A DNA stretch of 29,375 nucleotides from IMG/VR virus record IMGVR_UViG_2563366852_000005, one strand, 5' to 3'. Below, piece by piece: positions 415 through 28,394 of the stretch (the first letter of the stretch is position 1; each line of letters begins with the position of its first letter). The translations under genes were made by a program, and so were the position numbers. The DNA is from a virus. Its lineage: Duplodnaviria > Heunggongvirae > Uroviricota > Caudoviricetes. Under the pieces are notes generated by a model. That model was not told where the DNA came from and did not search any database. It saw nothing but the letters and a program-made list of their open reading frames with translations.

Positions 415-455
415 CAAATAAGATAAAGCCCCTCGACTGAGGGGCTTTCTGTTTG
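415..455. terminator. Bidirectional intrinsic terminator hairpin (stem AGCCCCTC / GAGGGGCT, loop GACT) with T-rich tracts on both strands; between the flanking ORF and ogr
   Basis: Perfect 8-bp GC-rich inverted repeat at 427..446 followed by TTCTGTTTG on plus and TTATCTTATTT on minus strand. Confidence 0.7.
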
Positions 456-458
456 TAA

Positions 459-677
459 TTACATCCACATAATTTGCTGCCCTGACGGCAACGGGTGCGG
501 TCTTACGGCGTGGACTTCTCCCGGCTTCACGATGTATCGCTGTACCGACTCATAAGTGATGAACGTGGCGCTGCAATTCACGTTCTGACACTGGTGATAA
601 CGCTCTTTTGTCGTGTCAGTGATATAGCGGCTTGTACGCGCATGTGCGGCATGCTGGCATAAAGGACAATGAAACAT
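459..677 (-). CDS. ogr: Ogr late-gene transcriptional activator (zinc-finger, 72 aa)
   Basis: Translation MFHCPLCQHAAHARTSRYITDTTKERYHQCQ... matches recalled P2 Ogr; CxxC...CxxC zinc finger; GGAAGAGG Shine-Dalgarno upstream of this ATG; longer ORF-track start rejected. Confidence 0.93.
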   Translation of the reverse strand: MFHCPLCQHAAHARTSRYITDTTKERYHQCQNVNCSATFITYESVQRYIVKPGEVHAVRPHPLPSGQQIMWM

Positions 678-758
678 CGCGAGCACCTCTTCCGGTTGTG
701 TTGATGGTGCCATTTTAGTTAATTTACCCTTATAAAACAAACAGATAAATAAAACACA

Positions 759-1922
759 TCACTCATCATCTTCTGTTTCGTACTCCACATCAGAAAGCCT
801 GACCTCAAGCTCTAAGGACGTCGTGAAGCCGCTATTATTCAGAAAATGTGTCACCTTAGTGATTGTCCAGTCCTGCTCGTCTATGACGCGCTTAAAGCCT
901 GACACTTTAACCGGTGTTTCCGTGTAAATATCTGCCCGACCGGTAGCCAGGCTGATGGAGAACTCCGCCACACCCCGTTGCAGTTTATCCCACTTCGCCT
1001 GGGCGGCACGCATGGCCTGTGCTTTCGTGGCATATACCGTGGTCAGGGCAAAAACGTTGTCAGCCTCACCGGCCATGTATTCACCTTCGCGCGCTTCCGG
1101 TACTTTTGGCGCTTTCTTCTGCGTGACTGGTTTCGCTTTCGGGTGCTCCAGTGCGCGCAGGTGTTTCTCTTTCTTTTTGCGTTTCAGTTTTACCTTCTGC
1201 TTTTGCGGCTTCGGGTCTTTGGTGTGTAACCACTTTGCCGTTACGCCGGTATAGGCTCCACGGTCAGCAATCGCAAAATGATGGCGGTCGCCGTCGCTGC
1301 GGGTTATGGTAATCTGCGGGATTTTCTTACCGCTGGCCGTCACCCCCTGCCCCGCCTTAAGAAATAACAGTTTTCCCATTTTTACCGACACCTCACCGCC
1401 GTTGCGTTCAGCAAGGCGGGTCAGGAATTTTGCATCAGACTCCTGCGACTGGTCGATGTGCGGGATTTTAATTCCGGCCAGTGACGGAGCAACACTGGCT
1501 TCCAGCTTGTTACGGGAGGCTATCGCCTCAACAATCGTACCGAGCGTGGTGTCATGCCAGGAGCCTTCCCGGCGGGAATTGAGCGTCCCGCGAAAATCTG
1601 CACTCCGGGCGCGGATGGTGACCACATCCGGCGCGCCCCGGTGTTCTACCTCATCAACGGTAAATTTCCCTTTGCATACCAGGGCAAAACCTTTCCAGCC
1701 GATATACACCGTCAGGACAGCGCCACGAATCGGCAGCTCGACCTGCCCGTCGGCATCGTTCAGTTCAATATCAAGCTGGTCAGCCTCAAAGCCCCGGTTA
1801 TCCGTCAGAGTCATGCTCATCAGACGGTCGCTGATATTGCCGGAAATATCCCTGCTGTCGAGCATCAGCATGTAATCCGGCGTCAGCGTACTGCCTGCAT
1901 CAAATGTCAGCGCATCCAGCAT
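759..1922 (-). CDS. D: Tail protein D (P2 gpD)
   Basis: 387 aa ORF in the conserved P2 position downstream of U; N-terminus MLDALTFDAGSTLTPDYMLMLDSRDISG as in P2 gpD. Confidence 0.9.
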   Translation of the reverse strand: MLDALTFDAGSTLTPDYMLMLDSRDISGNISDRLMSMTLTDNRGFEADQLDIELNDADGQVELPIRGAVLTVYIGWKGFALVCKGKFTVDEVEHRGAPDVVTIRARSADFRGTLNSRREGSWHDTTLGTIVEAIASRNKLEASVAPSLAGIKIPHIDQSQESDAKFLTRLAERNGGEVSVKMGKLLFLKAGQGVTASGKKIPQITITRSDGDRHHFAIADRGAYTGVTAKWLHTKDPKPQKQKVKLKRKKKEKHLRALEHPKAKPVTQKKAPKVPEAREGEYMAGEADNVFALTTVYATKAQAMRAAQAKWDKLQRGVAEFSISLATGRADIYTETPVKVSGFKRVIDEQDWTITKVTHFLNNSGFTTSLELEVRLSDVEYETEDDE

Positions 1923-2401
1923 TATCCCGCCCCCGTCATACCTGTGAATCTGGTCGCCATACTGCCAGCCTTACCGATGAGCGACTCCGCCTGTTTACCG
2001 ATATCGCCATAAAGCGCGGCCAGTGATTCATCAACGCGGGTGAGCGACAGCGTAAAATCAATTTTTCGGGGTGTGCCGTCTGCAAAGAAAATACTCCCTG
2101 TTTCACTCACCTTGCTAATGACATACATGCCGTAAATCATGCCAGTGCCATCCAGCAACGGCCACGCCCGGCCTTCATCTGCCATCAGCCTGAGCGTGGT
2201 CATCGTCAGCTTTCCGCCGGTCAGTTCGGGATAAAGCACACCGGCAAGCGTCATGTTTTCCTCACCCACACCGAGAAACTGGTAGGCATCCCGTTTACCG
2301 ATACGGGAATTTGACGGCCAGCGATAATCTGATTCACGCTGCATGGTCTGGTGTGGCAGCGTCTGGCGCATAAAAACAAACATACCTAACGCGAGCATCA
2401 T
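1922..2401 (-). CDS. U: Tail protein U (P2 gpU)
   Basis: 159 aa, synteny T-U-D, stop/start overlap with D. Confidence 0.9.
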   Translation of the reverse strand: MMLALGMFVFMRQTLPHQTMQRESDYRWPSNSRIGKRDAYQFLGVGEENMTLAGVLYPELTGGKLTMTTLRLMADEGRAWPLLDGTGMIYGMYVISKVSETGSIFFADGTPRKIDFTLSLTRVDESLAALYGDIGKQAESLIGKAGSMATRFTGMTGAG

Positions 2402-2415
2402 TTTTCGTCACCTCC

Positions 2416-4863
2416 TTAACCGTCATGCATCATGCTGGCACGGGCGCGCGCACGTTTGTCCCGCTCGTATTTTTCGAGCGCATCCTGTAACTGGCGGTCG
2501 AGCTGTGTCCCCGGCGCAGTACCACCCGTCAGGCTGATGTGATATTCGTTTTTACTCTGGTCTACATAAGAGCGGCCAGCCGGTGCCGTGACCGGCTGAT
2601 AAGCCTGATAACCTGCATAAGAGCTGGTCGCCGGAATATAACCACCGCTGCCATACGTGGCGGCTTGAGTTCTGGCGGCGGTCTGGTCAAGTGTGTCTGA
2701 CTCTTTGTTGATGACACCGAGTTTTTCCAGTACCCAGTCAATACCACTGCGCAGTTTGTTGAACGCATTAAGCGGCAGCATCAGCGCGTCAGCCAGTGCC
2801 TGCCCGAACATGACGCCCGTGTCACGGCAACGGTTCAGGGTGTCCTGGGTGGCTTTGACCGGGGCAATCAGGTTTTTAAACCACTGCCACGCGGCCTGTA
2901 ACTTTTCACCCAGCCAGTCAAACACCGGTTTAAGTGGCGTGAACAGTTCCCCCACCGGCGCAAATGCCGCTTTCAGCCCTTCAACCACACCGCCAAAAAA
3001 TGCGCTGACAGGCTCCCAGTATTTACGGATAAGTAACGCCCCGGCGACAATGGCGGCCACCACGGCCACTACCGGCCAGCTAATCGCCCCGATGGCCGTC
3101 ATAACGGCACTGCCAACCGTCGTGAAGATTGCCCCCATTGCGCCTGCTGCTGCGATAATGGCATTGATGCCGGTGATAACTGGCCAGGCTACGAGGCCAA
3201 TGGCACCGATGACACCAATCAGCGCCAGTGCACCACCGACAATGAGGCCGATGGTTGACGCCAGTGATTTGTTTTTCTGGATCCAGCCGTCGAGTTTTAA
3301 CACATACTTTGTGGCCGTCTGCGTGAGATTACGCAGTGCGCCTTCCTGCTGGTCAAACAGGTCAGTGCCAACAGCCTGATACGCTGACTGAAACGATTTA
3401 AAGTCGCCGCCGAGGTTATCCTGCATAACCTTAACCAGTTCTTCTGTTTTACCGTCAGATTCTTTAATCAACCTGGTCAGATTATCCAGCTTGCCGCTGG
3501 CTGCTGCTGTCATTAATACACTTGCTGATGAGCTGGCCTCTTCGCCGAATATTGTTTTCATGTATTCAGCGCGCTGCCCTGTTCCTAGTTTATTTTTTTC
3601 AAAACTCCGCTGAATTTCTTTCAGAATTGAAAAGACAGGTCGCGTATTACCTTTGCTGTCAGTTGTCTTTACGCCAAGCTCTTTAATAGCGTCATACGCT
3701 TTCCCGGTTGGTGCCTGCAAACGACTCAGTACTGCTCGACTTCCTGTGCCAGCCATAGACCCACTGATATTTGCATCGTGTAATGCACCTAACATTGCTG
3801 CTGTTTCTTCCAGGCTGACACCTGCATCTTTTGCCACTGGCCCGACATAGGTAAGTGAATCACTTAGTCCCTCGAATGTGGCTTGCGATTTATTCATCGT
3901 CATTGAAATAACATCAGCAATATGGGAAGCCTTATCGTCAGCAAGCCCGAATGCCGATTTTGTCCCAATAAGTAAAGTGGCGTTTTCCTCCATCGTTTTC
4001 TTGTTTGCCAGTGACATATTCAAAATGGCCGGTGTTTGTGCCAGGATGCCATTTTTATCCGCTCCTGATTTAGCCACGATGATTTGAGCTGCTGCTGCAT
4101 CATCCGCCGAGGCGGCGGTATTATCGCCGAGCTGGCGCGCCTGCTTGCGGAGCGCGGCCATTTCGGCAGAGTCTTTTGCCACTCCGAGCACGGCCTGTAA
4201 TTCTGAGTTTTTCTGCGCAAACTCATAACCGGGCATCAGCAGCTTAACACCAGCCATCGTTCCCGCCGCCGCAATCCCCACACCGGCAGCGCCCACTGAG
4301 GCCATATTTCCGGCCAGTTCCTTTCCGGCCTGATAACGCTGTTTTACTGCATTAAGTTTTGCCTGTTGCGCACTGACACGCGCCAGCGCGTCACGCTGAC
4401 GGTTAAGCTGTGCGGTGGTTTCACTGATACGGTTTTTCAGTCCCTGCTCATCATGTGCAAGATTGCGGGTATTAATTCCCACAGCGGCCAGTTCCCGCTG
4501 CTGGCGTTTAACGGAATCCGTCAGGCGGTTATATTTCGCCTGTAAGTCCTCCGCCGCACGCTTTGCGGATTCCAGCACTTTCGCCTGAGCACGGGTCGGA
4601 CGTTCAGTGTTTTTAAACTGTGTGGCAAGTGCTTCGGCTTCCTGCCGTGCCTTTTCAAGTGCATGACCAGTCACGGCAAGCTGTGCGCTGGTCTTGCGAA
4701 ATCCCTCAATACGGGATGCGTGACCGTTCAGCTCGCGCAGTGATTTTTGTGTTTCCCGGATATCCCCCGACAGCGACTTGCTCGCTGTGCGGATGGATTT
4801 AAACGGGCGGGATGCCTGGTCAACAGCCCTGAGCAATACCTGTAATTTTACATTGTTACTCAT
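2416..4863 (-). CDS. T: Tail tape measure protein (P2 gpT)
   Basis: 815 aa, coiled-coil N-terminal half, Gly/Ala-rich hydrophobic central segment, position after E/E'. Confidence 0.92.
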   Translation of the reverse strand: MSNNVKLQVLLRAVDQASRPFKSIRTASKSLSGDIRETQKSLRELNGHASRIEGFRKTSAQLAVTGHALEKARQEAEALATQFKNTERPTRAQAKVLESAKRAAEDLQAKYNRLTDSVKRQQRELAAVGINTRNLAHDEQGLKNRISETTAQLNRQRDALARVSAQQAKLNAVKQRYQAGKELAGNMASVGAAGVGIAAAGTMAGVKLLMPGYEFAQKNSELQAVLGVAKDSAEMAALRKQARQLGDNTAASADDAAAAQIIVAKSGADKNGILAQTPAILNMSLANKKTMEENATLLIGTKSAFGLADDKASHIADVISMTMNKSQATFEGLSDSLTYVGPVAKDAGVSLEETAAMLGALHDANISGSMAGTGSRAVLSRLQAPTGKAYDAIKELGVKTTDSKGNTRPVFSILKEIQRSFEKNKLGTGQRAEYMKTIFGEEASSSASVLMTAAASGKLDNLTRLIKESDGKTEELVKVMQDNLGGDFKSFQSAYQAVGTDLFDQQEGALRNLTQTATKYVLKLDGWIQKNKSLASTIGLIVGGALALIGVIGAIGLVAWPVITGINAIIAAAGAMGAIFTTVGSAVMTAIGAISWPVVAVVAAIVAGALLIRKYWEPVSAFFGGVVEGLKAAFAPVGELFTPLKPVFDWLGEKLQAAWQWFKNLIAPVKATQDTLNRCRDTGVMFGQALADALMLPLNAFNKLRSGIDWVLEKLGVINKESDTLDQTAARTQAATYGSGGYIPATSSYAGYQAYQPVTAPAGRSYVDQSKNEYHISLTGGTAPGTQLDRQLQDALEKYERDKRARARASMMHDG

Positions 4864-5283
4864 TCGTGTTTCCGCTTCGCCGGAGCGCCTTTTCGCGCCA
4901 TGTGATGAGTTCGGTCAGGCTCATGGGATACAGTTCTGATGGCGGCCAGTGAAATATCACTGCCACATCCGCCATCAGGTCATCGACCGAGAGATTTTTC
5001 GGAAACGTTACTGCACCGAGTTCGGCGACAAAAAACCGACCACCTTACCGGCCAGGGCCACAAGGTCAGGCAGTTCCAGCGCGGCGACTTCCTGCTCGGT
5101 CAGCATCGGTGCCGTCATGCGCGGCAGCACTTTAATCAGTGCATCGACTTCGGAGTTTGCGACCGCAGCCAGACTGACACCGCGCAGCGTCCCGGCATTG
5201 GGTTTCATCAGCGTGACCTGTTCGATAACCTGCTCACCACGCTTGACCGGATTGTCCAGGGTAATCACATTTTCTTTGTTCAT
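4856..5283 (-). CDS. E': Tail assembly chaperone E+E' made by programmed -1 ribosomal frameshift at TTTTTTG (minus-strand site = plus coords 5029..5035); extension ends ...WREKALRRSGNTNE, stop overlapping the T start
   Basis: Manual translation of the -1 frame from the slippery heptamer gives an open extension to a TAA at 4856..4858, overlapping the T ATG (ATGAGTAA); matches the known P2 E/E' arrangement. Confidence 0.8.
5008..5283 (-). CDS. E: Tail assembly chaperone E (P2 gpE)
   Basis: 91 aa MNKENVITLDNPVKRGEQV... ends ...GKVVGFLSPNSVQ; slippery GGTTTTTTG near its 3' end. Confidence 0.92.
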   Translation of the reverse strand: MNKENVITLDNPVKRGEQVIEQVTLMKPNAGTLRGVSLAAVANSEVDALIKVLPRMTAPMLTEQEVAALELPDLVALAGKVVGFLSPNSVQ

Positions 5284-5339
5284 GGTTTTCTCACTTCTGA
5301 ATCAGGGTTAACCGGTCAGCCAGGCTGACCGGATGAAAA

Positions 5340-5858
5340 TCACAGGCCGATATTGCGGCGGTGTTGCTCCAGCCGGTCGACGCCGTTCACCTTCTCAATC
5401 ATGTTGATGGTGTCGATTTCGACCAGCTCCTTACCGTCCATCGTCAGCCGGAAATAGGTGCAGACCACGGAGATTTTCGACTCGGTGTCTTCTCCCTGTT
5501 TACCCTCGCCGGTGTCGATTTCTTTCTGACGGCCACGCATGACCACTTCGACGGCCACCGTTTCGCCGGTATCGTCACGCTGGTAAGAGCCTGCAAAACG
5601 AATCGGCACGGCATCCACACCGGTTGCGGCGTAAAGTTCCCAGATAACCGAATCCGGGAAGCCCCCGAGCGACCACTCCATTGACAGCGCATCGTCATCA
5701 AGGCCGAGGTCTACCGGTGCGCTGCCGTTCATCCCCGCACCGCGATAGTTTTCGAGCTTACGGGTCAGTTTTGGCAGCGTGACGGACTTCGCGACGCCCT
5801 GATAGCTGTAGCCGTTCAGAAAGACGTTCATTAACTTGAGTTTGCGCGGCATTGCCAT
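5340..5858 (-). CDS. FII: Tail tube protein FII
   Basis: 172 aa MAMPRKLKLMNVFLNGYSYQG... as P2 gpFII; follows FI. Confidence 0.93.
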   Translation of the reverse strand: MAMPRKLKLMNVFLNGYSYQGVAKSVTLPKLTRKLENYRGAGMNGSAPVDLGLDDDALSMEWSLGGFPDSVIWELYAATGVDAVPIRFAGSYQRDDTGETVAVEVVMRGRQKEIDTGEGKQGEDTESKISVVCTYFRLTMDGKELVEIDTINMIEKVNGVDRLEQHRRNIGL

Positions 5859-5870
5859 CGGTCAGGCTCC

Positions 5871-7061
5871 TTAATTGCTGTTAACCGAGGTGACCAGACT
5901 TGCCAGGTATCTTGAAGTAATACGCTGGCGCAGGGTCAGGTTTTCGAGAGGAGGCACCGGGGTATAGTCGTAGTCGATATACAGTTTTCCGGCCTTGAGG
6001 GTTTCCGCATCATTGGCTTCTTCACTGAACCAGCATGTGCCATCCACGATATAACCGTTGCTTTTCAGTTCACGGAATTTGGCATTTATGCCGTCAACGA
6101 TGTCGCGAATCAGCGTTGCGGTGATGGGCTTATCAATAGCCCACATGTGCGCCTCAGCCATCGTGTCAGCCAGTACCTGCGCGGTGCGTGTGTAGCTTTC
6201 AAAGAGGAACAGTGGGTCATCGGAGCAGGTACGGTTACCCCAGAAACGGAAACCGTCGCGGCGAACCAGCGTTGTGACGCCTGCCTCGTTCAGCAGGTCA
6301 GCATCAGTGCCGGACTTCTGCAAATCCCAGAATACAGATGCGCTGATGCCAGTAACACCGTTTACCCCGACGTTGGACAGCGTTTTATGCCAGCCCTGCT
6401 CCTGGTCGATTTTAGCGCGCAGACCCAGCGCACGGGCGGTGGCATACGCGGTGGCGGTGGTGCTGGTGACCGTATCCCATGCGAGGAAATCCGGCCAGAT
6501 GACCATCAACTCACGCTGGCTGAAATTCTGGCGGTAGGCTTTCACCTCGGAAATGGTTTTACAGCCCCATGCGCTGATATACCCGAATGCATTCAGTTCC
6601 TGGCATACCGATGCCAGTGCGACGGCAACCTCTTTGGTGTCCAGCCCCGGCACACCAAGAATGCGCGGTTTAACGCCGGTAACCGACTCAGCCCCCATCA
6701 GGGCTTTCAGTCCGGTGTACTGACCGTTTTCGTCAGTGGTGCCGATGATATTGGAAACGGTCTGCGCGAGTTTCGTTTCCTCGTCGTCGCCGGTGCCGTC
6801 TTCAACACGCACGACAACGGTGACTGGTTTTGACTGGTCAGCGATGGCCTGCAACGACGCCGCCAGCGTGCCTTTTTTACCGGCCTTTGCAATTGCGCTC
6901 TGCACATTGGTAATCAGCACCGGTTTATTGAGGGGGAAGATTTCCGCATCCGCATCGCTGGCCGTGCAGACCATGCCGACAATGGCGGTGGATACGGTGG
7001 AAATGACACGGGTGCCGTCGTTAATCTCCAGCACCTGCACGCCGTGATGATAGTCACTCAT
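5871..7061 (-). CDS. FI: Contractile tail sheath protein FI
   Basis: 396 aa, MSDYHHGVQVLEINDGTRVISTV...; GGAG Shine-Dalgarno 8 nt upstream; synteny. Confidence 0.93.
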   Translation of the reverse strand: MSDYHHGVQVLEINDGTRVISTVSTAIVGMVCTASDADAEIFPLNKPVLITNVQSAIAKAGKKGTLAASLQAIADQSKPVTVVVRVEDGTGDDEETKLAQTVSNIIGTTDENGQYTGLKALMGAESVTGVKPRILGVPGLDTKEVAVALASVCQELNAFGYISAWGCKTISEVKAYRQNFSQRELMVIWPDFLAWDTVTSTTATAYATARALGLRAKIDQEQGWHKTLSNVGVNGVTGISASVFWDLQKSGTDADLLNEAGVTTLVRRDGFRFWGNRTCSDDPLFLFESYTRTAQVLADTMAEAHMWAIDKPITATLIRDIVDGINAKFRELKSNGYIVDGTCWFSEEANDAETLKAGKLYIDYDYTPVPPLENLTLRQRITSRYLASLVTSVNSN

Positions 7062-7193
7062 CCGTTTAACTCCGTGGTTAATGGGTGAGTGGTATTTTCA
7101 GTTGTGCCGGAGATGTCAGGCTATTTGTCCCGGTTGGCTAATCAACAGCACAACCACCGGTAAAGAAAAGGCGGGCAATCAGCCCGCCTGTGT
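7062..7193 (-). promoter_or_regulatory. G-FI intergenic region: expected Ogr-dependent late promoter for the FI-FII-E-T-U-D operon; empty Z/fun cargo slot
   Basis: Position relative to P2 operon structure; only 132 bp and no ORF. Confidence 0.5.
7162..7190 (-). terminator. Intrinsic terminator after G (stem GGCGGGC/GCCCGCC, loop, then TTTTCTTT on the minus strand)
   Basis: 7-bp GC stem at 7170..7188 immediately downstream of the G stop, followed by a T-tract on the transcribed strand. Confidence 0.7.
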
Positions 7194-7772
7194 TTATTGC
7201 GGTAGTTCCGGCCATTCAATATCCGGGGCATTTTCCGGCTGAACGCGATTCAGTAGCACACGGTATTTTTTCCAGTGTGTCAGGCTTAACTTTTCTTCCT
7301 CGGTAGCCATATCTAAATCGACAGCATCCTGCAGCGTGGCAATAATTTCACCTGCATATGCAATCAGCTCTTTCTTCTGAGAGTCAGCCGCTCTGACAAG
7401 CGCATCACGCTCTGCATTCTCATCATTCACCCACGCATTTCCGTTCCATTTCTGATAATCCCCATCCGGGGAAATGGCTGTCACGTCTGGAGGTAATGCG
7501 CCAAGTTCAGAAATATAAATGGCTGCTCCCGTTTTCGTTTCATAGACAGTCTTTCCGCGATGGTCTTCCATCAGTTCCCATTTCATTTCATCTGCATTGA
7601 AAACGGCTGCATAACCAGCAGGAATATCAGGCGGTGCAATATCTGTACTGTTTGCAGGCAGACCTGTATGCGGCGGAATATATGCGTCACTTTCACCAAT
7701 AAATTCATTGGTTCCATCAAGTAAATTGAAAACGCGGATAGTTTGTGCTTCTGCACTCATTCTGAAAGCCAT
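7194..7772 (-). CDS. G: Tail fibre assembly protein (P2 gpG / Tfa family)
   Basis: 192 aa directly downstream of the tail fibre gene with stop/start overlap; Tfa-like N-terminus. Confidence 0.85.
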
Positions 7773-10387
7773 TATGCAAGCCTCACAATATAGTTAAATG
7801 CGATGTTTTTGACGGTGTTTTCGGTATTACCCGTAGCATTTACCGTGATGGTGTGTCCGTGCGCACCCAAGGCCACAGTGTGTGCATGGGCACCAATACC
7901 TACAGTGTGGTTATGCTGACCAATATCCACCGTATGGGCGTGCGCTCCGGCTGTGCTGGACACCTGATTGTTTCCTGAAGCCTGTACACGCTGTTTTCCA
8001 CCGACAGAGTCGCCGCCATAAACACCACCGACAGTGTGCGTATGATTGCCCGTATTGTTCGTTGATTTTGTGCCGTGGTTAAACGTACTGACCGTCTTCG
8101 TGCCGTAATCAAATGAACTGGTCGTTTTCGTTCCCAAATCCGTATTTGACGCACTGGCGCTGTGAGTATGCGATTTAATCCCGTCCTGCTCCTGTGACAA
8201 TACGGCTCGCCCACTGGCGGGTTTGCCCTTGATTGTCCAGCCGCGCATATCTGGAATAACACCTGAAGGATAGGCTATAGCCAGTTTCGGATATGCAGCC
8301 TTATCGAACGTCTGCCCCTGCATAATTGCATAGCCCGCAGGTGGTGTATCTGATGGCCACGGCAACGGAACACCTGGCGGAAACGCTTCGATATTTGCCG
8401 ACCCGTCAAATTTTACGCCGTTAATTGTCCTTGCCGTTTTCAGCTTTGTCGCTGTAGCAGCATTGCCGGACAGTTCGCCTGAAAGACCACCGCTGAATGT
8501 CTGTTTCGCTGCCCATGTCTGGGCTTCGTCGATAATTGGAACACGTCTTGTGGTGATCGTGCGGTTTCCCGGATTTCCTGAAATACGCACCATAAAAAAG
8601 CGGTAGTTCGCTTTACTTACAGTGCTGCGCCATACATGCATTGAGCGCCCCGTACCGGAATCATCACTCGGACCCACTGCGATGTTTATCAGGTTGCCAT
8701 CAATGACGCCCCAGTCCATACCGTCGGGAATGTTGGTCATGTTATCAAGCCGAACGGTTATCAGACTGCCCGGCACAAAGTCGTAGGTCTGCCAGTCCAG
8801 GCTGGTGAGCTTTGCCACAGCACCGCCGATACCCAGATTCAGGGGAAGTGAATACGAGGTGTAGACTTCCCGCCATTCGCTCCACGAGCTGCCGGTATAG
8901 ACGCGCTCAAACGTGCGACCTTTAAGGGTTGCACCTGTTCCGGCAGTTGTATAACGCTGCCATACGTTAACACCATCAAAGCGCCTCAACACTTCCAGAA
9001 TACCGAGGACTGTCACGCCGTTTCCGTCCAGTATTGGACCATTGGTCGCTTTACCTGTAACGCTGTAAATACCTGGTGAGGTTACATCATTCAAATCACC
9101 GTCGTAATAACGGCTTTCTGACTGGTAGCCCACTCTTGACCACGGCTCCCACTGTGGGTTCTCTGCATCCCACGAGGCCGAAAGACAGCGAACATAAACA
9201 TTTCCACGACGGGTCGTGTAACGCTGCGTTCGCGAGTAACCACCACCTTCAAGAACTTCAAGGAGTCCCTGACCATAACTTCCTTCTTCCGGATAGTTGC
9301 GGTCAAATGAAGCGATTGAGCCACTACTGTTTCGCCATAAACCAAGATGCTCTGCGCCTCCGAGCGTGTTCAGGTCAATGGTTGTGCTCAGGGGGCGTGT
9401 TGCAGACTGAATCTGACGCCAGTAACTCCACGGACCGTCTGAGCCATTCCAGGTGCCAGAAAGGTTGCGCATATAAACATTGCCTGTTCTGGTGGTATAA
9501 CGCTGCATTCCTGCAAAATTACCGCCATTGAATACCTCAAGCACACCGACTGCACCGTCTTCAGGGAAATTTTTCTCCAGTGTTGCGTTGGTGGATGTTG
9601 CTTTAGACCAGATACCTGAATAAGCCTTAACAGGACCAAATGTATTCAGATCAGCATCAAGCGGCATTTCGCCATTGTTTTTCATAAACGTCAGGCTGGT
9701 AACGCCAACATTTTCCAGAAAAGCTGATTTATCCTGGATATCTGCACCATTCTGATTTTTCGCCAGACGTGAATTTGCGTTGTCATTTGCTGCCTTGACC
9801 GCTTTTGGCGTTGCCGCCAATGACTCACTGGTGCTGTTTGTTGCACTGCTTAACTGAGTAAAACCTTTTTCTGTCAGTGTGGCGTCAGGATGGCGGCGGG
9901 ACTGCTCATGCTCTGCGATTTTGTCATCGACGTAATCCTGCGTCGCCATCACTGTGCTGGCATCAATACTCAGCTCAACGGACGCCACGTTACTGACAAT
10001 AATGACCATGCGGCAGGTCTGCGCACGTCCGGAGCCTTCAGCCAGTTCAGGCTTATAGCTTTCTGCCATGTTAGCGACCGCAATCAGTGTTCCGGCATCG
10101 TCATACAGACCAAGCTCACGCATCCAGAAGCCGCCCACTTCGGGCGGTACAACCAGTTCAGCCACGATATAGTTTTTATTCTTATTATCCACGCTGACTT
10201 TATTCAGAGCGTGACGCCAGACCTCATGCACCAGTTTCGTCTGACCGGCATCCGGCACCGGCAATTTGCCATTACCGTCACCCACGGCCATTGCAGACAG
10301 GTTTACTTTTTTCCCGCCGGGGACAGTGGCGGCTGCCAGCTTTGCGGCTCCGGCAGTAGTGATAACGGTTTTAAATTTCGTGCTCAT
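7772..10387 (-). CDS. H: Tail fibre protein H, long variant with repetitive His-rich C-terminal receptor-binding region
   Basis: 871 aa; conserved N-terminus [24 protein letters not shown]; C-terminus with five G-x-H-x-H-T-V repeats and terminal ...[11 protein letters not shown]. Confidence 0.9.
7841..8160 (-). repeat. In-frame tandem coding repeats in the H C-terminus (GxHxHTV units x5 and GTK-T/S-rich units x3)
   Basis: Repeated nucleotide units visible around 7840..8060 and 8050..8160; translate to [31 protein letters not shown] and DYGTKT..., NHGTKS... Confidence 0.7.
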
Positions 10388-12819: not shown

Positions 12820-12885
12820 AACGGGAAGGATGCCGCCGGGTCATACCGGCGGCAATGTGACGATGAGGTGTCGGGAATGGCACAA
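12820..12885 (-). promoter_or_regulatory. S-V intergenic region: expected late promoter for the V operon, containing a perfect 8-bp GC hairpin (12832..12853) 13 nt upstream of the V start
   Basis: GCCGCCGG-gtcata-CCGGCGGC inverted repeat; position matches the P2 operon boundary. Confidence 0.4.
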
Positions 12886-19253: not shown

Positions 19254-21026
19254 ATGACCATCACCACAGACACCACTCTTTTACACGACCCGCGTCGTCA
19301 GGCGGCGCTGCTGTACTGGCAGGGATTTTCCGTGCCGCAGATTGCCGCCATGTTGCAGATGAAACGCCCGACGGTGCAGAGCTGGAAACAGCGCGACGGC
19401 TGGGACAGCGTTGCCCCCATCAGCCGTGTCGAAATGAGTCTGGAAGCGCGACTGACCCAGCTCATTATCAAACCGCAGAAAACCGGCGGTGACTTCAAGG
19501 AAATTGACCTGCTGGGACGCCAGATTGAACGACTGGCGCGGGTCAACCGCTACAGTCAGACCGGCAACGAGGCAGACCTTAATCCGAACGTCGCTAACCG
19601 CAACAAAGGCGGGCGTCGCAAACCGAAAAAGAATTTTTTCAGTGACGAGGCCATCGAAAAGCTGGAGCAGATTTTCTTTGAGCAGTCTTTCGACTATCAG
19701 TTGCACTGGTATCGCGCCGGGCTTGAGCACCGCATCCGCGATATCCTGAAATCCCGCCAGATTGGCGCAACGTTTTATTTTTCCCGCGAGGCGCTGCTGC
19801 GCGCCCTGAAAACCGGCCATAACCAGATTTTTCTGTCGGCCAGTAAAACGCAGGCGTATGTGTTCCGCGAATACATCATCGCCTTTGCCCGTCTGGTTGA
19901 CGTTGACCTGACCGGTGACCCGATTGTCCTGGGCAATAACGGCGCAAAACTGATTTTTCTCGGCACCAACTCCAACACCGCGCAGAGCCATAACGGCGAC
20001 CTGTACGTCGACGAGATTTTCTGGATCCCGAATTTTCAGGTACTGCGTAAGGTGGCATCAGGTATGGCCTCACAGAGCCACCTGCGCTCGACCTATTTCT
20101 CCACCCCGTCCACGCTGGCGCACGACGCCTACCCGTTCTGGTCGGGTGAACTGTTCAACCGGGGACGCGCCAGCGCCGCCGAACGCGTGGAAATCGACGT
20201 CAGTCATAACGCCCTTGCCGGAGGTCTTCTCTGTGCGGACGGCCAGTGGCGGCAGATTGTCACCATTGAGGACGCCCTGAAAGGTGGCTGCACGCTGTTC
20301 GACATTGAGCAGCTTAAACGCGAAAACAGCGCCGACGATTTTAAAAACCTGTTCATGTGTGAATTTGTTGACGACAAGGCATCGGTGTTCCCGTTCGAGG
20401 AGCTGCAACGCTGCATGGTCGACACGCTGGAAGAATGGGAAGACTATGCACCCTTTGCCGCCAATCCGTTCGGCTCCCGCCCGGTATGGATTGGTTACGA
20501 CCCGTCACACCGTGGCGACAGCGCCGGATGCGTGGTGCTGGCACCGCCGGTGGTGGCCGGTGGCAAATTCAGAATACTTGAGCGTCACCAGTGGAAAGGC
20601 ATGGACTTTGCCACCCAGGCTGAATCCATCCGCAAACTCACCGAAAAATACAACGTCGAATACATCGGAATTGATGCCACCGGCCTCGGTGTCGGCGTGT
20701 TCCAGCTCGTGCGCTCGTTCTATCCCGCCGCGCGCGATATCCGCTACACACCGGAAATGAAAACCGCAATGGTGCTCAAGGCAAAAGACGTTATCCGCCG
20801 TGGCTGTCTGGAATATGACGTCAGCGCCACCGACATCACCAGCTCGTTTATGGCTATCCGAAAGACCATGACCAGCAGCGGACGCAGCGCCACCTATGAG
20901 GCCAGTCGCAGCGAGGAAGCCAGCCACGCCGACCTCGCCTGGGCGACCATGCACGCCCTGTTAAATGAGCCACTCACCGCCGGTATCAGCACCCCGCTGA
21001 CATCCACCATTCTGGAGTTTTACTGA
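19254..21026 (+). CDS. P: Terminase large (ATPase) subunit P (590 aa)
   Basis: MTITTDTTLLHDPRRQAALLYWQGFSVPQIAAMLQ...; ORF-track start at 19224 is a TTG upstream extension. Confidence 0.93.
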   Translation: MTITTDTTLLHDPRRQAALLYWQGFSVPQIAAMLQMKRPTVQSWKQRDGWDSVAPISRVEMSLEARLTQLIIKPQKTGGDFKEIDLLGRQIERLARVNRYSQTGNEADLNPNVANRNKGGRRKPKKNFFSDEAIEKLEQIFFEQSFDYQLHWYRAGLEHRIRDILKSRQIGATFYFSREALLRALKTGHNQIFLSASKTQAYVFREYIIAFARLVDVDLTGDPIVLGNNGAKLIFLGTNSNTAQSHNGDLYVDEIFWIPNFQVLRKVASGMASQSHLRSTYFSTPSTLAHDAYPFWSGELFNRGRASAAERVEIDVSHNALAGGLLCADGQWRQIVTIEDALKGGCTLFDIEQLKRENSADDFKNLFMCEFVDDKASVFPFEELQRCMVDTLEEWEDYAPFAANPFGSRPVWIGYDPSHRGDSAGCVVLAPPVVAGGKFRILERHQWKGMDFATQAESIRKLTEKYNVEYIGIDATGLGVGVFQLVRSFYPAARDIRYTPEMKTAMVLKAKDVIRRGCLEYDVSATDITSSFMAIRKTMTSSGRSATYEASRSEEASHADLAWATMHALLNEPLTAGISTPLTSTILEFY

Positions 21027-22229: not shown

Positions 22230-22248
22230 GTGCTTTCCCCGCCTCGCC
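22230..22248. other. cos: cos site: 19-nt cohesive-end sequence GTGCTTTCCCCGCCTCGCC (reverse complement of the P2 cos GGCGAGGCGGGGAAAGCAC)
   Basis: Exact match to the P2 cohesive-end sequence as recalled from memory; located between Q and the old-side cargo as in P2. Confidence 0.75.
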
Positions 22249-22376
22249 TGCCCGCTTTATGGGTCGATTTTAATGCAAGTGCACGAACACACTGGAGACG
22301 CACCAGTACTGGCGGTGGTCACGTAGATCCGCCCCTTAAAAGCCATGCAGAATAATGCAACTATTGCGGGCGTCGG

Positions 22377-22796
22377 CTAATCATCTTCTAAAGGTGGAAT
22401 TTTGATGCCACTAATTAGCAGTACTTTCCGGTATGCCTCAAAAATAATGTTGTGTGTTTTTTGTAAATCATCGAGCATTTTTTGCCGTCCTGCTGGGGTA
22501 TCTTTGGCGAAATTATGAGCGCGAAAAAAATCATGTGCCAAGTAGTTTCGAGCTGATAGAGCCAGTTCTACATGTTGTAGCGTTTCATCATCTGCCACCC
22601 CTTTTTTACGCAATAAATTGCTTAGTCTGCCTAATGTTAACTTATCAAATTTTAAGAATTTTTCTTTTAATGTTGGAATGTCTTCGCCTTGCTTCATTTC
22701 ATGTTCGATAAGGACATTAATCAGTTCAACTTCCAACAATTGTGCAGCTTCTGAGGTGTAACCGAACTTCCAAAAGACTTCATCAAGCGTTGCCAT
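22377..22796 (-). CDS. Hypothetical small alpha-helical protein with an HEPN-type R-N-x3-H motif (RNYLAH); candidate RNase toxin or abortive-infection effector in the tin/old cargo slot
   Basis: 139 aa from ATG at 22796 (ORF-track start 22805 is GTG); GAGTGG Shine-Dalgarno-like element upstream; about 35% GC versus about 52% for the phage backbone; motif read from translation. Confidence 0.6.
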   Translation of the reverse strand: MATLDEVFWKFGYTSEAAQLLEVELINVLIEHEMKQGEDIPTLKEKFLKFDKLTLGRLSNLLRKKGVADDETLQHVELALSARNYLAHDFFRAHNFAKDTPAGRQKMLDDLQKTHNIIFEAYRKVLLISGIKIPPLEDD

Positions 22797-22933
22797 GTGT
22801 TCCACTCAAGATAAATGCAGGTTATGAAAAAGAAGAATGATGATGGAAATTCCAGATGAAGTCTAACGCCTCGCTCCGCTCGTTGTTCAACCCCGCCAGC
22901 CCTGAAAACAAGTTTCACGACTGGCGGCGTTCT
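22797..22933 (-). promoter_or_regulatory. Putative own promoter/leader region for the AT-rich HEPN-like gene
   Basis: 137-nt non-coding gap with a GC-rich to AT-rich transition upstream of the ORF; no clear consensus -35/-10 assignable by eye. Confidence 0.3.
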
Positions 22934-23140
22934 CTATCGTCTGCGTGGTGGTGGCGTAACTCTTGATTGACCGATATGGTTAAACCGCCCGTAATTATCC
23001 CGGACTATTTCGGCACACACGACCAGCTCATCGGGCGTCAGATTTTCGTTGACCATAATCCGCTGTAAACGCTGAACAATAGCCATCAGCTTGATATTTT
23101 TAGTTTTATGGTGCGGTATCTCGCCTGGTATTCTGTGCAT
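22934..23140 (-). CDS. Small hypothetical protein (68 aa), translationally coupled to the upstream ASCH-like gene (TAATG overlap)
   Basis: ATG at 23138..23140 overlaps the TAA of the upstream gene; helical-looking sequence MHRIPGEIPHHKTKNIKLMAIVQRLQRIMVNENLTPDELVV... Confidence 0.4.
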   Translation of the reverse strand: MHRIPGEIPHHKTKNIKLMAIVQRLQRIMVNENLTPDELVVCAEIVRDNYGRFNHIGQSRVTPPPRRR

Positions 23141-23592
23141 TATCCAAGCCACCCGTTTTGCTGTGCACGCTCCATCTGTTCATCTGAATAGTTCCATGCT
23201 CCATCCGTGGCAACCATTGCCCCGCCAGACATCCCCGTCTCTGGTTCATACATAACAGCAAGGCCGAGCTGATGCATAATTTCATGATTAATTCTGAATA
23301 CCAGACCACGCTCACTAAGTTCTTTCCAGTTCACAATCTCATATGCGCCTGTATTAAGCCGCTCAATACTTAGCAAGACATAATCTTCCAGCCAGTCTGA
23401 CAGGTCAGTAACATCTGTTATCCGGGCTTCAACCTTTCGCCCCGTATACACACCCTGCACCCATTCATGCAAAATCAACGTGTCCCCGCGCTCATAATTA
23501 CGGTCATTTTTCCGAAACTCTGCACGTTTATGTCCTTCCAGCACAAGGTCGAAATATTTTGCGTGCAGCTTTACCTCGTGAATTTTTGCCAT
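23140..23592 (-). CDS. ASCH/PUA-like (DUF3850-like) domain protein with a C-terminal HEIMH (HExxH) motif, translationally coupled to A
   Basis: 150 aa from ATG at 23590..23592 overlapping the A stop (TAATG); N-terminal pattern KIHEVKLHAKYFDLVLEGHKRAEFRKNDRNYERGDTLILHEW...YTGR resembles ASCH-like phage proteins; C-terminal INHEIMHQLG. Confidence 0.6.
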   Translation of the reverse strand: MAKIHEVKLHAKYFDLVLEGHKRAEFRKNDRNYERGDTLILHEWVQGVYTGRKVEARITDVTDLSDWLEDYVLLSIERLNTGAYEIVNWKELSERGLVFRINHEIMHQLGLAVMYEPETGMSGGAMVATDGAWNYSDEQMERAQQNGWLG

Positions 23593-25877
23593 TATGTCCA
23601 CTCCATTACTGTTGAGAATCCCGGCCACTCATCAGCGACCGGATACGTGAATTTTTTCCCGTCGTAATTTACGGTTGCCCCACGCGCCAGCGCCTCAAGC
23701 TCCCATCGCTGAGGCCTGATACCGTTCTGAGCAAGGTCAACACGGATACGGGTAATTTGCATTCTTTCCGACCGGGTCAGTCTGGCCGATGGTGCAATTT
23801 CATGCGGTTTTAACGGGCTTCCGTTTCTTTGCTGACGATTTGGTGTTCTCATGTCGTGTTTTAATGCGCCCCTGAGCGCCCTCACGACCTCCTGGTCATT
23901 CCATTCGATAACACCGTCATCAACCAGATTAAGCACTGCTGCGGCGTGTTCAGAAGGTGTGGGAGCCGGTAACGAAGCATCACCGCCGGTGAACTTTCCA
24001 CAGTTATTGACAGGACTCCGAGGCGCGGCGATGCCGCTTTTTAAAGTCAAAGGCTCAACGACCGGAACTTTCGGCACAATGCGCCAGTCCGTCGTTCTGG
24101 TGATATGAATATGTCGCGCGCCGAGATGCGGCGCGTAAATGCCGACCACTCTCTCGACTTCTTCTTCGTACTCGTTAACGTCTTCCGACGGGCTACGGGC
24201 AACCCTGACAGTCTGACAATCGCGCGGGACATTTGCCCCACCCTGCGCGCTGATATACAACGCAAAATCACCACTGTCTGCGGCGGCGCGTGCAGCCTCG
24301 ACGCGCTCGTCAAACTCATCAGCAATGCTGACGCCGCGAGGCAATTTGCGTAGTTCACGGTAAGCCCCCATTGTCGGCAGACCAACCGTTTTAAATTGCG
24401 GAATGCGCCACGTTGACGCCCATGCGGTAACAGCCGCAGCAGTGTCTTTCAGCGGCCTGCCGGTATCGTTATCGAGCTGACCATCCAGTGCATAGCCGTC
24501 GATGTTTTTTGAGATGTATTTCGCGATATACCCCGCAGCACCGCCCCGGTTAAGGTGTTTTGCCTGAAAACGGTTTCGCGCGGCTCCTCTTTCGTCGCCA
24601 TCCTCTTTGAGCGCGTAGCGACGCATGATTTCGATAATCTGGTTACGCTGGCGTGGATTACAAAAAAGCATCATATGCCAGTGCGGCGTTCCGTCGTGGT
24701 GTGGTTCAACAACACGCAAACCGTAGGCCTGTAAATCATTATCCTTGAATGCCGTGCGCATCAGGCTCCAGATACGGCAGAGATAACGCTGCGCATCCTT
24801 TGGATTAAATGCCTCATCGTTCCAGCCGTGATTTAGCTGGACGGTTTTACTTTCGCCTTTTCTGACCTGACGTGTCGGGTGATACTTTGACGGCGCGGTA
24901 AGCGTGATAAACATCCCCACATCACCCTCTGCGGCGGCGTAACGCTCAATACCGGCGATGGTGTTCATCAGCTCCATCCGGCGAATTTCTGGATTTGAAA
25001 TACTGCCCATCACCTTACTGATAAGGTCGATGCGCTCGCCGGTTTCCTTGTTTTCAAGGTCACACGATTTAAGAAATTCCAGATTTGCCTGGCGGCGTGC
25101 ACGTACATCACGAATGGCATGTTTACTGGCATAAGGAGAACGGTCTTTATTGACCTCCCCGACAGCAATCAGTAACGCCTCATGCCAGCGCATGCGCTGG
25201 CCTTTGAGCTGATGAGTCCACCACTCATCGTTAAACAGACGGGCAATGGCAGAATACGCCTGCCTCGTGGTCATCTGTCCTTTACGGTATTTTTTCCAGT
25301 AGAGCGGGGAAATATTGAAAGCACGTGCAGCGCCAGCAACATGACCATACAGGTGAGCCTGCGCCTCATCCGTAAACAGCGATTCTTTTTCGCCATGCGC
25401 ATCCACCCAGGCATCGCTGAGTTCCTCATACATCATGAAAAGCTGCGATGAGATACGGGCGGCAAACTTTTTCAGCTCTTTGTCATTCATTCCAGGCAGG
25501 CGCGCATAGTGGTCACGCTCTGCCAGAAACAGCAACGACGCGTCGGTGTTCATTTCATGGCGCTGATTCACACGCTCAATGCGCGGCCATAAACGACGCT
25601 GAAAAGTGGATGTGAGGAAATAAAACCCGTGCACCGGGCTTTTATTGCGCCGGATGTAGTCATAGCGTGAAGTAAACAGCGAGCGCAAAAAGTAAGGCAG
25701 GCGGTTAATCGTGGATAAAACACCTTGCACCTGACGCATCTCGTCACGTGTAAGGGGTCTTTCGCGCCCGACAGCCTCGCGTGGCGCGTTCCATGCATAA
25801 GCACCGGTAAACGCCTTACCGGTGCCTGCGGCAAATGCTGACGGAGGGACAAAACGCCCGGAGGCTTTAACGGCCAT
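23592..25877 (-). CDS. A: Replication initiation protein A (rolling-circle nickase, 761 aa)
   Basis: MAVKASGRFVPPSAFAAGTGK...; start chosen to match P2 gpA length; ORF-track start at 25919 is an upstream extension. Confidence 0.93.
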   Translation of the reverse strand: MAVKASGRFVPPSAFAAGTGKAFTGAYAWNAPREAVGRERPLTRDEMRQVQGVLSTINRLPYFLRSLFTSRYDYIRRNKSPVHGFYFLTSTFQRRLWPRIERVNQRHEMNTDASLLFLAERDHYARLPGMNDKELKKFAARISSQLFMMYEELSDAWVDAHGEKESLFTDEAQAHLYGHVAGAARAFNISPLYWKKYRKGQMTTRQAYSAIARLFNDEWWTHQLKGQRMRWHEALLIAVGEVNKDRSPYASKHAIRDVRARRQANLEFLKSCDLENKETGERIDLISKVMGSISNPEIRRMELMNTIAGIERYAAAEGDVGMFITLTAPSKYHPTRQVRKGESKTVQLNHGWNDEAFNPKDAQRYLCRIWSLMRTAFKDNDLQAYGLRVVEPHHDGTPHWHMMLFCNPRQRNQIIEIMRRYALKEDGDERGAARNRFQAKHLNRGGAAGYIAKYISKNIDGYALDGQLDNDTGRPLKDTAAAVTAWASTWRIPQFKTVGLPTMGAYRELRKLPRGVSIADEFDERVEAARAAADSGDFALYISAQGGANVPRDCQTVRVARSPSEDVNEYEEEVERVVGIYAPHLGARHIHITRTTDWRIVPKVPVVEPLTLKSGIAAPRSPVNNCGKFTGGDASLPAPTPSEHAAAVLNLVDDGVIEWNDQEVVRALRGALKHDMRTPNRQQRNGSPLKPHEIAPSARLTRSERMQITRIRVDLAQNGIRPQRWELEALARGATVNYDGKKFTYPVADEWPGFSTVMEWT

Positions 25878-27620: not shown

Positions 27621-27622
27621 AA

Positions 27623-27895
27623 TCACAACCCCATCCACAAAAGCCATGCATCACGCTGTTCAACCGGCCGGTTATAAAACGCCTCACGTACAGCGCGATT
27701 AAACTCTGGAATGAAAACCCATTTCTCACCGGCACGAGCCTTAGGCTTATTTGGATCTCGAAGCTCAATAACCGGTAGCTTGTTAGCCTTGATCATTTCT
27801 GTAACTGCGGTTTTTGGTTTACCCAATAAATCTGCAAATTTTTCCGCATGTACCGCATCGAGCGGGTACTTGATCACATAATCATTCGCTTCCAT
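27623..27895 (-). CDS. cox: Cox: excisionase/directionality factor and repressor of the lysogenic promoter
   Basis: 90 aa, first gene of the early operon, divergent from C; ends ...RDAWLLWMGL, as in P2 Cox. Confidence 0.85.
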   Translation of the reverse strand: MEANDYVIKYPLDAVHAEKFADLLGKPKTAVTEMIKANKLPVIELRDPNKPKARAGEKWVFIPEFNRAVREAFYNRPVEQRDAWLLWMGL

Positions 27896-28325: not shown

Positions 28326-28394
28326 CTCTATATAAAGATTACATTTTCACCATTTGCTTCCAGAATGGTGAATACAGCGCCGGAGGGCTTTCTT

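Follow-up and report, generated by a model that had tools for sequence, protein, structure and literature searches.

A P2-type tail chaperone gene pair linked by a −1 frameshift in an E. coli prophage, with a candidate upstream stimulator of the shift

The window analysed here, a stretch of 29,375 nt from a Caudoviricetes record (IMGVR_UViG_2563366852_000005), carries gene E, flanked by FII (tail tube) and T (tape measure), with all three genes on the minus strand (Table 1). Residues 7–85 of gpE match Pfam PF10109 (Phage_TAC_7; E/41/14 chaperones) with E = 2.6e-12 and 47 bits against a cut-off of 25, and the frame-0 product matches phrog_103 at 3.8e-43. The products of FI, FII, E, T, U and D comprise 396, 172, 91, 815, 159 and 387 aa, exactly as in phage P2. 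Furthermore, positions 425–7190 of the window are collinear with P2 24288–17523, including the pF promoter region, and P2 differs from the window prophage in accessory regions but not in the tail operon. The element is an ordinary E. coli prophage of the P2 type, and its tail operon is intact. A preliminary description of this DNA had taken the frameshift in gene E as confirmation that the operon is intact. The frameshift site itself does not show this; the gene lengths and the collinearity with P2 do so separately.

Table 1. Features of the E/E' region and its neighbours, in window coordinates
Feature	Position	Strand	Basis and remarks
Gene FII (tail tube, 172 aa)	5340..5858	minus	PF04985, E = 2.3e-60; directly upstream of E
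Gene E (gpE, 91 aa + TAA)	5283..5008	minus	ORF list, translation, Pfam PF10109; length and position equal those of P2 E
E+E' fusion span (142 aa = 85 residues in frame 0 + 57 in frame −1)	4856..5283	minus	predicted from translation
Shine-Dalgarno-like element TAAGGTGGT, core AGGTG 5045..5041	5039..5047	minus	−12 to −4 from the first T of the heptamer; candidate stimulator
Last −1-frame stop before the heptamer, TAA	5047..5045	minus	9 nt upstream of the heptamer
Slippery heptamer T TTT TTG (P-site TTT, A-site TTG)	5035..5029	minus	in phase with E; maps onto the P2 slip site
E' (57 codons in the −1 frame from GTC at 5029, then TAA 4858..4856)	4856..5029	minus	contains PF06528
Internal ATG-initiated 39-codon ORF inside E'	4856..4975	minus	ORF list; 'GpE family phage tail protein' in automatic pipelines
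Gene T (tape measure protein, 815 aa)	2416..4863	minus	PF10145; ATG 4863..4861, 8-nt overlap with the end of E' (ATGAGTAA)

The heptamer TTTTTTG occurs as a single copy in the E region. In frame 0 it is read within the codons GGT TTT TTG (G83, F84, L85), and its phase relative to E is the canonical X XXY YYZ. Because the −1-frame TAA lies on one side and the E stop (5008–5010) on the other, a productive shift is confined to a window of 34 nt. This is the only place at which both frames, 0 and −1, are open, and it contains the in-phase heptamer. Of the 57 codons that follow the slip, 50 extend past the E stop, and the E' stop falls on the eighth nucleotide of T because the ATG of T occupies 4863..4861. 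The −1 frame has no ATG, GTG or TTG between its upstream stop (5047) and the ATG at 4975. Thus, most of the preliminary description is borne out: the feature spans exactly the nucleotides given there (on the minus strand, which had been left unstated), the heptamer lies once near the 3' end of E, 'about 50 codons' is a fair figure for the extension, translation of the −1 frame reveals no stop codon soon after the heptamer, and the frame closes 8 nt inside the T start.

The predicted fusion protein carries a second conserved domain. Its residues 104–139 match Pfam PF06528 (Phage_P2_GpE) with E = 1.2e-21 and 76.3 bits against a cut-off of 23, and phrog_1756 aligns with residues 82–142. The 'gpE+E'' protein of phage Wphi (P0002) shares 99% identity with the fusion and has the junction GFLVAELG in common with it. 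Two forms of the junction are present in databases, GFLV in phage Wphi and GFFV in NCBI E. coli proteins that bear the name 'GpE family phage tail protein'. A junction peptide VVGFLVAELGAVTFPK would be expected if Leu is decoded before the slip, and VVGFFVAELGAVTFPK if the slip occurs ahead of A-site decoding. A search of the PDB found no sequence relative of gpE+E'.

The locus is nearly identical to its counterpart in the FETUD tail operon of P2. The stretch is 98.6% identical to P2 (AF063097) over 701 nt, with 8 substitutions in 461 nt aligned, and the two agree letter for letter from −20 to +19 nt around the heptamer. The heptamer maps to P2 19678–19684, and the adjacent base, 19685, is annotated in the P2 record as 'site of −1 translational frameshift'. 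The same record annotates both E and E+E', the latter as a joined CDS that has its amino terminus in common with gpE ('−1 frameshift; essential tail protein'). P2 has the same gene, the same heptamer and the same 8-nt overlap with T as the window, and its −1 shift at TTTTTTG yields a 91-aa E and a 142-aa E+E' (PMC3091744). The differences are minor: the E stop is TGA in P2 and TAA here, a change that is synonymous (GTA/GTG) when read in E', and the E protein differs in one residue (N29 here, S29 in P2) besides a few silent changes. The P2 frameshift is said to have been established experimentally by Christie, Temple, Bartlett and Goodwin in 2002 (in J Bacteriol 184:6522), who reportedly put the shift frequency at about 10% and, by complementation, reportedly found E' to be essential for growth. 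Production of the fusion and essentiality of E' would be inherited by this prophage through its 98.6% identity to P2. The programmed −1 frameshift producing E+E' is therefore a correct finding that is already known and not new, and as given it matters for annotation only, in that the window can be labelled a P2-like prophage whose tail operon is intact.

Related phages have the same arrangement. Phage 186 (orf51/orf52) and PSP3 (gp23/gp23.5) of the genus Eganvirus and the Burkholderia phages KS5, KS14 and KL3 resemble the window in architecture, in-phase TTTTTTG and a 57-aa extension (PMC3091744). Their proteins are about 72–74% (186, PSP3) and 49–59% (Burkholderia phages) identical to those of the window and have longer N-termini. 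The 8-nt overlap with the tape measure start recurs in the enteric members (186, PSP3 group), whereas in the Burkholderia phages phiE12-2, Mana and CEP1 the overlap is 4 nt (ATGA or GTGA).

Conservation is most informative in distant relatives. Sixteen diverged lineages from phages of Enterobacterales, Burkholderia, Ralstonia, Acidovorax, Vibrio and Aeromonas were compared, the most distant sharing only about 29% protein identity. Every lineage has an in-phase heptamer (TTTTTTG in 14, TTTTTTC in 2) located 6–66 nt ahead of the E stop. All 16 also have a −1 extension of 54–73 aa with the motif V-[DE]-x-x-x-A-D-I-A-x-x-F-H-W; the reading frames of four high-GC lineages among them were set by tblastn. 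A tblastn search with the fusion matched 418 phage records, and among the matches listed 43 of 45 had near-full coverage, every one in two pieces that correspond to two reading frames. Furthermore, in 119 of 120 loci, each from a different bacterial genome contig, the heptamer stands in canonical phase with respect to the E' frame, where one third would be expected by chance. These loci come from a degenerate DNA pattern scan that required both the heptamer and the F-H-W motif, and hence they test phase and upstream context rather than heptamer presence. Together, these comparisons show that the E/E' arrangement is conserved across phages of alpha-, beta- and gamma-proteobacteria, in line with the conserved tail-chaperone architecture put forward in the preliminary description.

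The same data bear on whether the heptamer and the open −1 frame might coincide here by chance, with no biological role. Neither element is striking by itself: TTTTTTG occurs 12 times in the whole window against 7.75 ± 2.6 expected, a count reached by 9 of 100 shuffles, and, given the GC content, some 57 open codons in the −1 frame are nothing unusual. The case for more than chance rests instead on the in-phase heptamer within the sole 34-nt window, the PF06528 match of the −1 frame and the conservation in distant relatives. The conservation across the three proteobacterial classes already refutes a chance overlap, and at the same site the P2 record annotates a −1 frameshift yielding an essential tail protein. 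The probability of a fortuitous overlap is thus negligible.

A second alternative is that E' is a separate small gene, with a 39-aa peptide initiated at the −1-frame ATG (4975) and no need for a frameshift. Database annotation speaks for it, as RefSeq calls exactly this 120-nt ORF 'GpE family phage tail protein' in E. coli 600468, several phage records do likewise, and the 39-aa PHROG family phrog_6416 is built from such small-ORF calls. However, the internal ATG lacks a usable Shine-Dalgarno (SD) sequence, its best anti-SD duplex reaching −2.9 kcal/mol against −5.0 kcal/mol at the E start. The internal Met, which falls within the conserved motif, is not itself conserved: six of the 16 lineages have V, A, I, I, W or E in its place. 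Conservation of the −1 frame reaches upstream of it (V-D/E-D/E-x), and phrog_1756 already aligns from residue 82 of the fusion. Moreover, an independent gene would not need an in-phase heptamer, yet the heptamer is kept in all 16 lineages and in phase at the genomic loci described above, and in the P2 record E+E' has the gpE amino terminus. We consider a separate gene extremely unlikely, and the free-standing 39-codon 'GpE' ORF is regarded as an annotation artefact that is really the C-terminal part of the frameshift fusion.

Hence, the region almost certainly encodes a P2-type tail assembly chaperone pair via a −1 frameshift at T TTT TTG. Most ribosomes would reach the E stop and produce gpE (91 aa). 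In the remainder, the P-site tRNA-Phe (UUU) and the A-site tRNA-Leu (UUG) would re-pair one nucleotide back on UUU UUU, and translation of 57 codons in the −1 frame would then yield gpE+E' (142 aa) and terminate inside T. By analogy with lambda G/GT, the N-terminal domain common to both products may coat gpT, the tape measure protein, and the E' domain may recruit gpFII, the tail tube protein; the fixed shift frequency would set the gpE:gpE+E' ratio required in tail assembly, and both proteins would be absent from the virion.

Recoding to fix the ratio of two assembly chaperones is a textbook case. The lambda pair gpG/gpGT, whose genes are likewise flanked by the major tail gene and the tape measure gene, is reportedly the subject of work by Levin, Hendrix and Casjens (1993) and by Xu, Hendrix and Duda (2004, 2013, 2014). 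Its slip sequence is G GGA AAG, unlike the T TTT TTG found here, and the lambda tail is non-contractile, whereas that of P2 is contractile. No Pfam match to the lambda-type chaperone family was found in gpE+E' (the matches are PF10109 and PF06528 only), nor was any sequence similarity to it detected. As judged from these comparisons, E/E+E' would work like lambda G/GT, yet it is not a member of that sequence family. The lambda frameshift is low-level, with its products at about 30:1, and P2 and related phages shift at a level 2–3 fold higher (PMC5009743).

In an E. coli ranking of slippery heptamers (PMC4066793), U UUU UUG is not among the most efficient, and thus frameshift efficiency must depend on context. 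The modest rank of the motif as a ribosomal slip site also favours an alternative in which RNA polymerase adds an extra U in the U6 run, so that some mRNAs encode E+E' in-frame. A one-nucleotide insertion in the T run gives the same 142-aa fusion with the junction GFFVAELG, a database-attested form, and at the sequence level transcriptional slippage and a ribosomal shift look alike. However, the T run comprises just six residues, and transcriptional slippage in bacteria normally requires runs of about 8–9 or more to be efficient. Furthermore, the seventh base of the heptamer is limited to G or C and its phase is fixed, and an upstream element complementary to the anti-SD, which is under synonymous constraint (see below), points to a mechanism at the level of the ribosome. 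The P2 literature likewise treats the E/E+E' shift as translational (AF063097, PMC3091744, PMC5009743). Transcriptional slippage is very unlikely as the source of the fusion.

For the ribosomal shift, downstream RNA structure is probably not involved. The 89 nt downstream of the heptamer show no notable fold (z = −1.56; 12 of 200 shuffles fold as well), RNAalifold predicted 0 pairs downstream of the heptamer in the 16 lineages, and the conserved hairpin or pseudoknot 5–9 nt 3' of the heptamer that marks structure-stimulated signals was not found. P2 is described as lacking a downstream stimulatory structure as well (PMC3091744).

Upstream of the heptamer lies an SD-like element. Its anti-SD duplex of −8.4 kcal/mol is the strongest in gene E. 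The element was considered as a ribosome-binding site for E' and rejected because the −1 frame has no start codon between 5044 and 4975. Its consensus RAGGUG is located 5–6 nt before the heptamer (−11..−6), and in the window AGGTG is spaced from the heptamer by 6 nt. In E. coli dnaX and in IS911, an element complementary to the anti-SD also precedes the slippery heptamer, as in the candidate stimulator described here. The slip motif of these systems is A AAA AAG rather than U UUU UUG, and their downstream hairpin or pseudoknot has no counterpart here. An SD-like sequence placed as in signals of the dnaX and IS911 type is present in the window, in 13 of 16 phage lineages and in 53 of 68 genomic representatives.

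Since the element lies within the coding sequence of E, its conservation has to be weighed against constraint on the protein. At RAGGUG, a GAG or AAG codon is used in 46 of 49 lineages, compared to 50% elsewhere in the same genes. With the 16 lineages only, a synonymous permutation did not separate the SD-like element from protein constraint (Fisher p = 0.054); with the 68 representatives, the two are separable, and the constraint on synonymous sites is specific to its codons. This suggests that, in phages of alpha-, beta- and gamma-proteobacteria alike, the choice among synonymous codons maintains RAGGUG. RAGGUG would probably pair with the 16S rRNA of the elongating ribosome and raise the shift frequency. 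That the P2-family slip site has in RAGGUG a previously unremarked upstream stimulator is a tentative proposal, for which we see somewhat less than an even chance; Christie 2002 or Xu 2004 might mention the element earlier. If true, it would explain how a moderate U UUU UUG without downstream structure exceeds lambda G/GT in shift frequency. If confirmed by experiment, it would also provide a clean case of an internal SD-like sequence that is maintained within a coding region despite the usual avoidance of such sequences, and a modest addition in the form of the missing stimulatory element of a widespread frameshift signal. The E/E' system occurs in 29% of complete E. coli genomes.

All genes in the E/E' part of the window lie on the minus strand according to the ORF list, a point that the preliminary description had left unstated while placing the feature correctly at 4856-5283. 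ORF and frame reading likewise bear out its heptamer TTTTTTG, its extension of about 50 codons and its 8-nt overlap with the tape measure gene T. On the minus strand, this interval contains TTTTTTG only once, and frame 0 reads it as GGT TTT TTG (G83-F84-L85), in the canonical X XXY YYZ phase. Because a TAA at 5047..5045 closes the -1 frame, which is open thereafter until the TAA at 4858..4856, with no early stop after the heptamer, as had been claimed, the stretch open in both frame 0 and frame -1 is limited to 34 nt and includes the heptamer. A -1 slip after decoding of TTG would continue with 57 codons, the first three being GTC GCC GAA. The predicted fusion E+E' has 142 aa and ends 8 nt inside T (AATGAGTAA), the ATG of which is at 4863..4861.

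Coordinates of features in the window
Feature	Position	Strand	Length	Matches and remarks
135-aa ORF	window start, beyond ogr		135 aa	phrog_3807, unknown function
T (tape measure gene)	2416-4863	minus	815 aa	PF10145; downstream of E
C-terminal part of E'	4856-4975	minus	39 codons	626-745 of locus L019 (E. coli 600468)
E ORF	5283..5008	minus	91 aa	
Stretch open in frames 0 and -1	5044..5011	minus	34 nt	
Heptamer TTTTTTG	5035..5029	minus	7 nt	
Spacer Val codon	5036-5038	minus		nt -5..-3
SD-like element TAAGGTGGT	5039-5047	minus		nt -12..-4 from the first T of the heptamer
Tail tube gene	5340-5858	minus		PF04985; upstream of E
Tail sheath gene	5871-7061	minus		PF04984, PF17482; upstream of E
ORF in replaced TO region	22377-22805		142 aa	phrog_12893, unknown function
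ORF in replaced TO region	23140-23628		162 aa	ASCH/DUF3850 and DUF7415; PHROGs: RNA-binding protein

The heptamer by itself is uninformative because the window holds 12 copies against 7.75 +/- 2.6 expected, and a 57-codon open frame is likewise unremarkable. The -1 extension matches Pfam PF06528 (Phage_P2_GpE; 76 bits, E = 1.2e-21) and the frame-0 part PF10109 (Phage_TAC_7), with concordant PHROGs (phrog_103 on residues 1-88, phrog_1756 on residues 82-142). With the fusion as tblastn query, 418 of 50,697 phage records matched, of which 401 reached at least 80% coverage; among the matches listed, the near-full-coverage records (43 of 45 rows) were all two-piece, i.e., split over two reading frames. 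We compared 16 lineages with fusion identities from 77% down to about 29%: 186, PSP3, Kp4884-2, ENT4, ENT90, 500465-1, 3LV2017, SEN5, Burkholderia phiE12-2, Mana and CEP1, Ralstonia YO124_1, Acidovorax Acica and Alfacinha3, Vibrio VP58.5 and Aeromonas Ahp2. Every lineage carries an in-phase heptamer (TTTTTTG in 14, TTTTTTC in 2) 6-66 nt ahead of the stop of the E homologue, and in 16/16 the -1 frame stays open for 32-56 codons past that stop, which gives extensions of 54-73 aa. When the inferred fusions are aligned as proteins, F-L (or F-F) at the slip site share one column and the extension retains the motif V-[DE]-x-x-x-A-D-[IV]-A-x-x-F-H-W...E-L..W-R..A..R. Furthermore, a scan of one genome per bacterial species with a degenerate pattern (heptamer, free 43-73-nt gap, A-D-[IV]-A...F-H-W) found 120 loci from alpha-, beta- and gamma-proteobacteria, and the heptamer is in canonical phase relative to the E' frame, judged by gap length, in 119 of them versus one third by chance. 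A chance overlap of a heptamer with an open -1 frame is contradicted by these conservation data and is excluded.

Phage P2 (AF063097) is 98.6% identical to the 701 nt around the site, and 74 Peduovirus records are 95-99% identical. The P2 record lists E (19430..19705), a joined CDS E+E' (19430..19857; '-1 frameshift; essential tail protein'), a 'site of -1 translational frameshift' and a T start at 19850, and E, E+E' and T have the same geometry in the window. In a pairwise alignment, window and P2 differ at only 8 of 461 positions and at none from 20 nt upstream of the heptamer to 19 nt beyond it; E ends with TAA in the window but with TGA in P2, a synonymous difference in the E' frame. The initial proposal of a programmed -1 frameshift producing E+E' is supported. 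The feature is the E/E+E' frameshift of P2, already known and annotated, in a common prophage (1583 of 5426 complete E. coli genomes contain this E/E' stretch), and the upstream Shine-Dalgarno (SD)-like constraint is the sole element that is possibly new, a lead. The 2002 abstract by Christie and colleagues reportedly puts the P2 shift efficiency at about 10% and is said to describe E' as essential, by complementation.

E' might instead be a free-standing 39-aa peptide initiated at ATG 4975, which is how it is annotated by RefSeq for one or more E. coli genomes and also in several phage records. The SD before this ATG is weak (-2.9 kcal/mol), the conserved sequence reaches upstream of the Met, which is itself substituted in 6 of 16 lineages, and a separate gene would not need the conserved in-phase heptamer, all of which argue against independent initiation. 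RefSeq and several phage records name these C-terminal 39 codons 'GpE family phage tail protein'. We regard this separate call as an artefact that the frameshift systematically produces in annotation; it is mirrored by phrog_6416 (39 aa) and probably also by PF06528 (37 positions). Among related database proteins (P0001-P0012), the fusion junction itself exists in three versions, GFLV (phage Wphi), GFFV (NCBI E. coli proteins named 'GpE family phage tail protein') and G-FV. G-FV belongs to 141-aa forms from SRA-derived assemblies and would match a T4 run; possible explanations are homopolymer errors in assembly or variants that naturally make only the fused form.

In P2, the shift takes place at TTTTTTG without a downstream structure, and the products are E (91 aa) and E+E' (142 aa) (PMC3091744). 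P2 and related phages shift 2-3 fold more efficiently than lambda does in its low-level G/GT frameshift (PMC5009743). In the window, the 89 nt 3' of the heptamer are no more stably folded than shuffled sequences (z = -1.56; 12 of 200 as good), and RNAalifold predicts zero conserved downstream pairs across the 16 lineages. Upstream, TAAGGTGGT forms the strongest anti-SD duplex in gene E (-8.4 kcal/mol), and the mean anti-SD profile of the 16 lineages has its global minimum at -13 (-6.5 versus a mean of -1.1 kcal/mol). With 16 sequences, synonymous permutation does not separate this signal from conservation of the E/K-V residues (Fisher p = 0.054). Among 68 genome-scan representatives (<80% identity over 90 nt upstream), a sample conditioned on the heptamer and the F-H-W motif, 53 have an SD-like sequence at suitable upstream spacing versus 31.9 +/- 3.1 under synonymous-codon permutation (maximum 42 in 500 permutations) and a background of 9% at other codon positions. 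Six control anchor positions in the same genes lack the enrichment and show, if anything, slight avoidance. Of the 49 lineages with a Glu/Lys codon at -11..-9, which are not phylogenetically independent, 46 use GAG or AAG, versus 216 of 434 such codons at other sites of these genes (Fisher p = 3.5e-10). This bias persists under stricter dereplication (25:2 at <70% identity, p = 9e-6; 11:2 at <65%, p = 0.017) until power is lost at <60% (5:1, p = 0.2), and two other conserved Glu columns have GAG:GAA ratios of 15:13 and 10:28. Where the following codon encodes Val, it is GTG in 38 of 52 cases. The consensus RAGGUG at -11..-6 is under synonymous-site constraint, a signal that is clear with the 68 representatives; it lies 5-6 nt 5' of the slip site, at the lower limit of published spacings. 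Since U UUU UUG is not ranked among the most efficient heptamers in E. coli (PMC4066793), a stimulator is plausible, and RAGGUG is a possible candidate. A literature search that left out Christie 2002 and Xu 2004 found no earlier report of an upstream SD-like element. Synonymous bias extends to the spacer codon that precedes the E-site codon: where it encodes Val, 16 of 22 lineages use GTC (p = 1e-4), and 48 of 68 representatives have C at -3, which hints at a context effect directly 5' of the heptamer, separate from the SD-like core.

Transcriptional slippage at the U6 run is compatible with the sequence, but a run of only six makes it improbable, and it leaves the fixed phase, the restricted seventh base and the upstream anti-SD-complementary element unexplained. 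We consider it unlikely and favour a -1 shift of the ribosome at U UUU UUG, the mechanism established for P2, as the best explanation. By analogy to lambda G/GT, the shared N-terminal domain would bind the tape measure protein, the E' domain would recruit tail tube subunits and the shift frequency would set the ratio of the two products.

As a whole, the window represents a P2-like prophage. Compared with virion DNA it is circularly permuted: cos lies around 22230-22277, and the gene order is 135-aa ORF, ogr, D, U, T, E, FII, FI, G, H, I, J, W, V, S, R ... Q, cos, replaced TO region, A ... cox, C, int. The F operon looks intact, as had been asserted, because its ORFs have exactly the P2 lengths; the frameshift site, from which intactness had been concluded, does not show it. 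Differences from P2 lie elsewhere. P2 orf30 is missing between S and V (12820-12883), and fun(Z), between FI and G in P2, is absent from 7062-9781, where FI and G are only about 130 nt apart. Gene G and the C-terminal two-thirds of the tail fibre gene H are without a P2 match, and H encodes 871 aa with a Collar domain versus 669 aa in P2, which suggests a host-range module swap. The P2 TO region by cos (old, tin) is replaced at 22278-23371 by two other ORFs, which may form a different cargo or defence module. The cox/C immunity region (27622-29375 and 1-408, listed with int and the ogr-side ORF) has no detectable nucleotide match to P2, but matches to the phage Cox family (PF10743) and to an HTH repressor fold are retained in its proteins. 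Together with an integrase gene that matches P2 only in two short stretches (70-81% identity), this divergence implies an immunity type other than that of P2 and probably a different attachment site.
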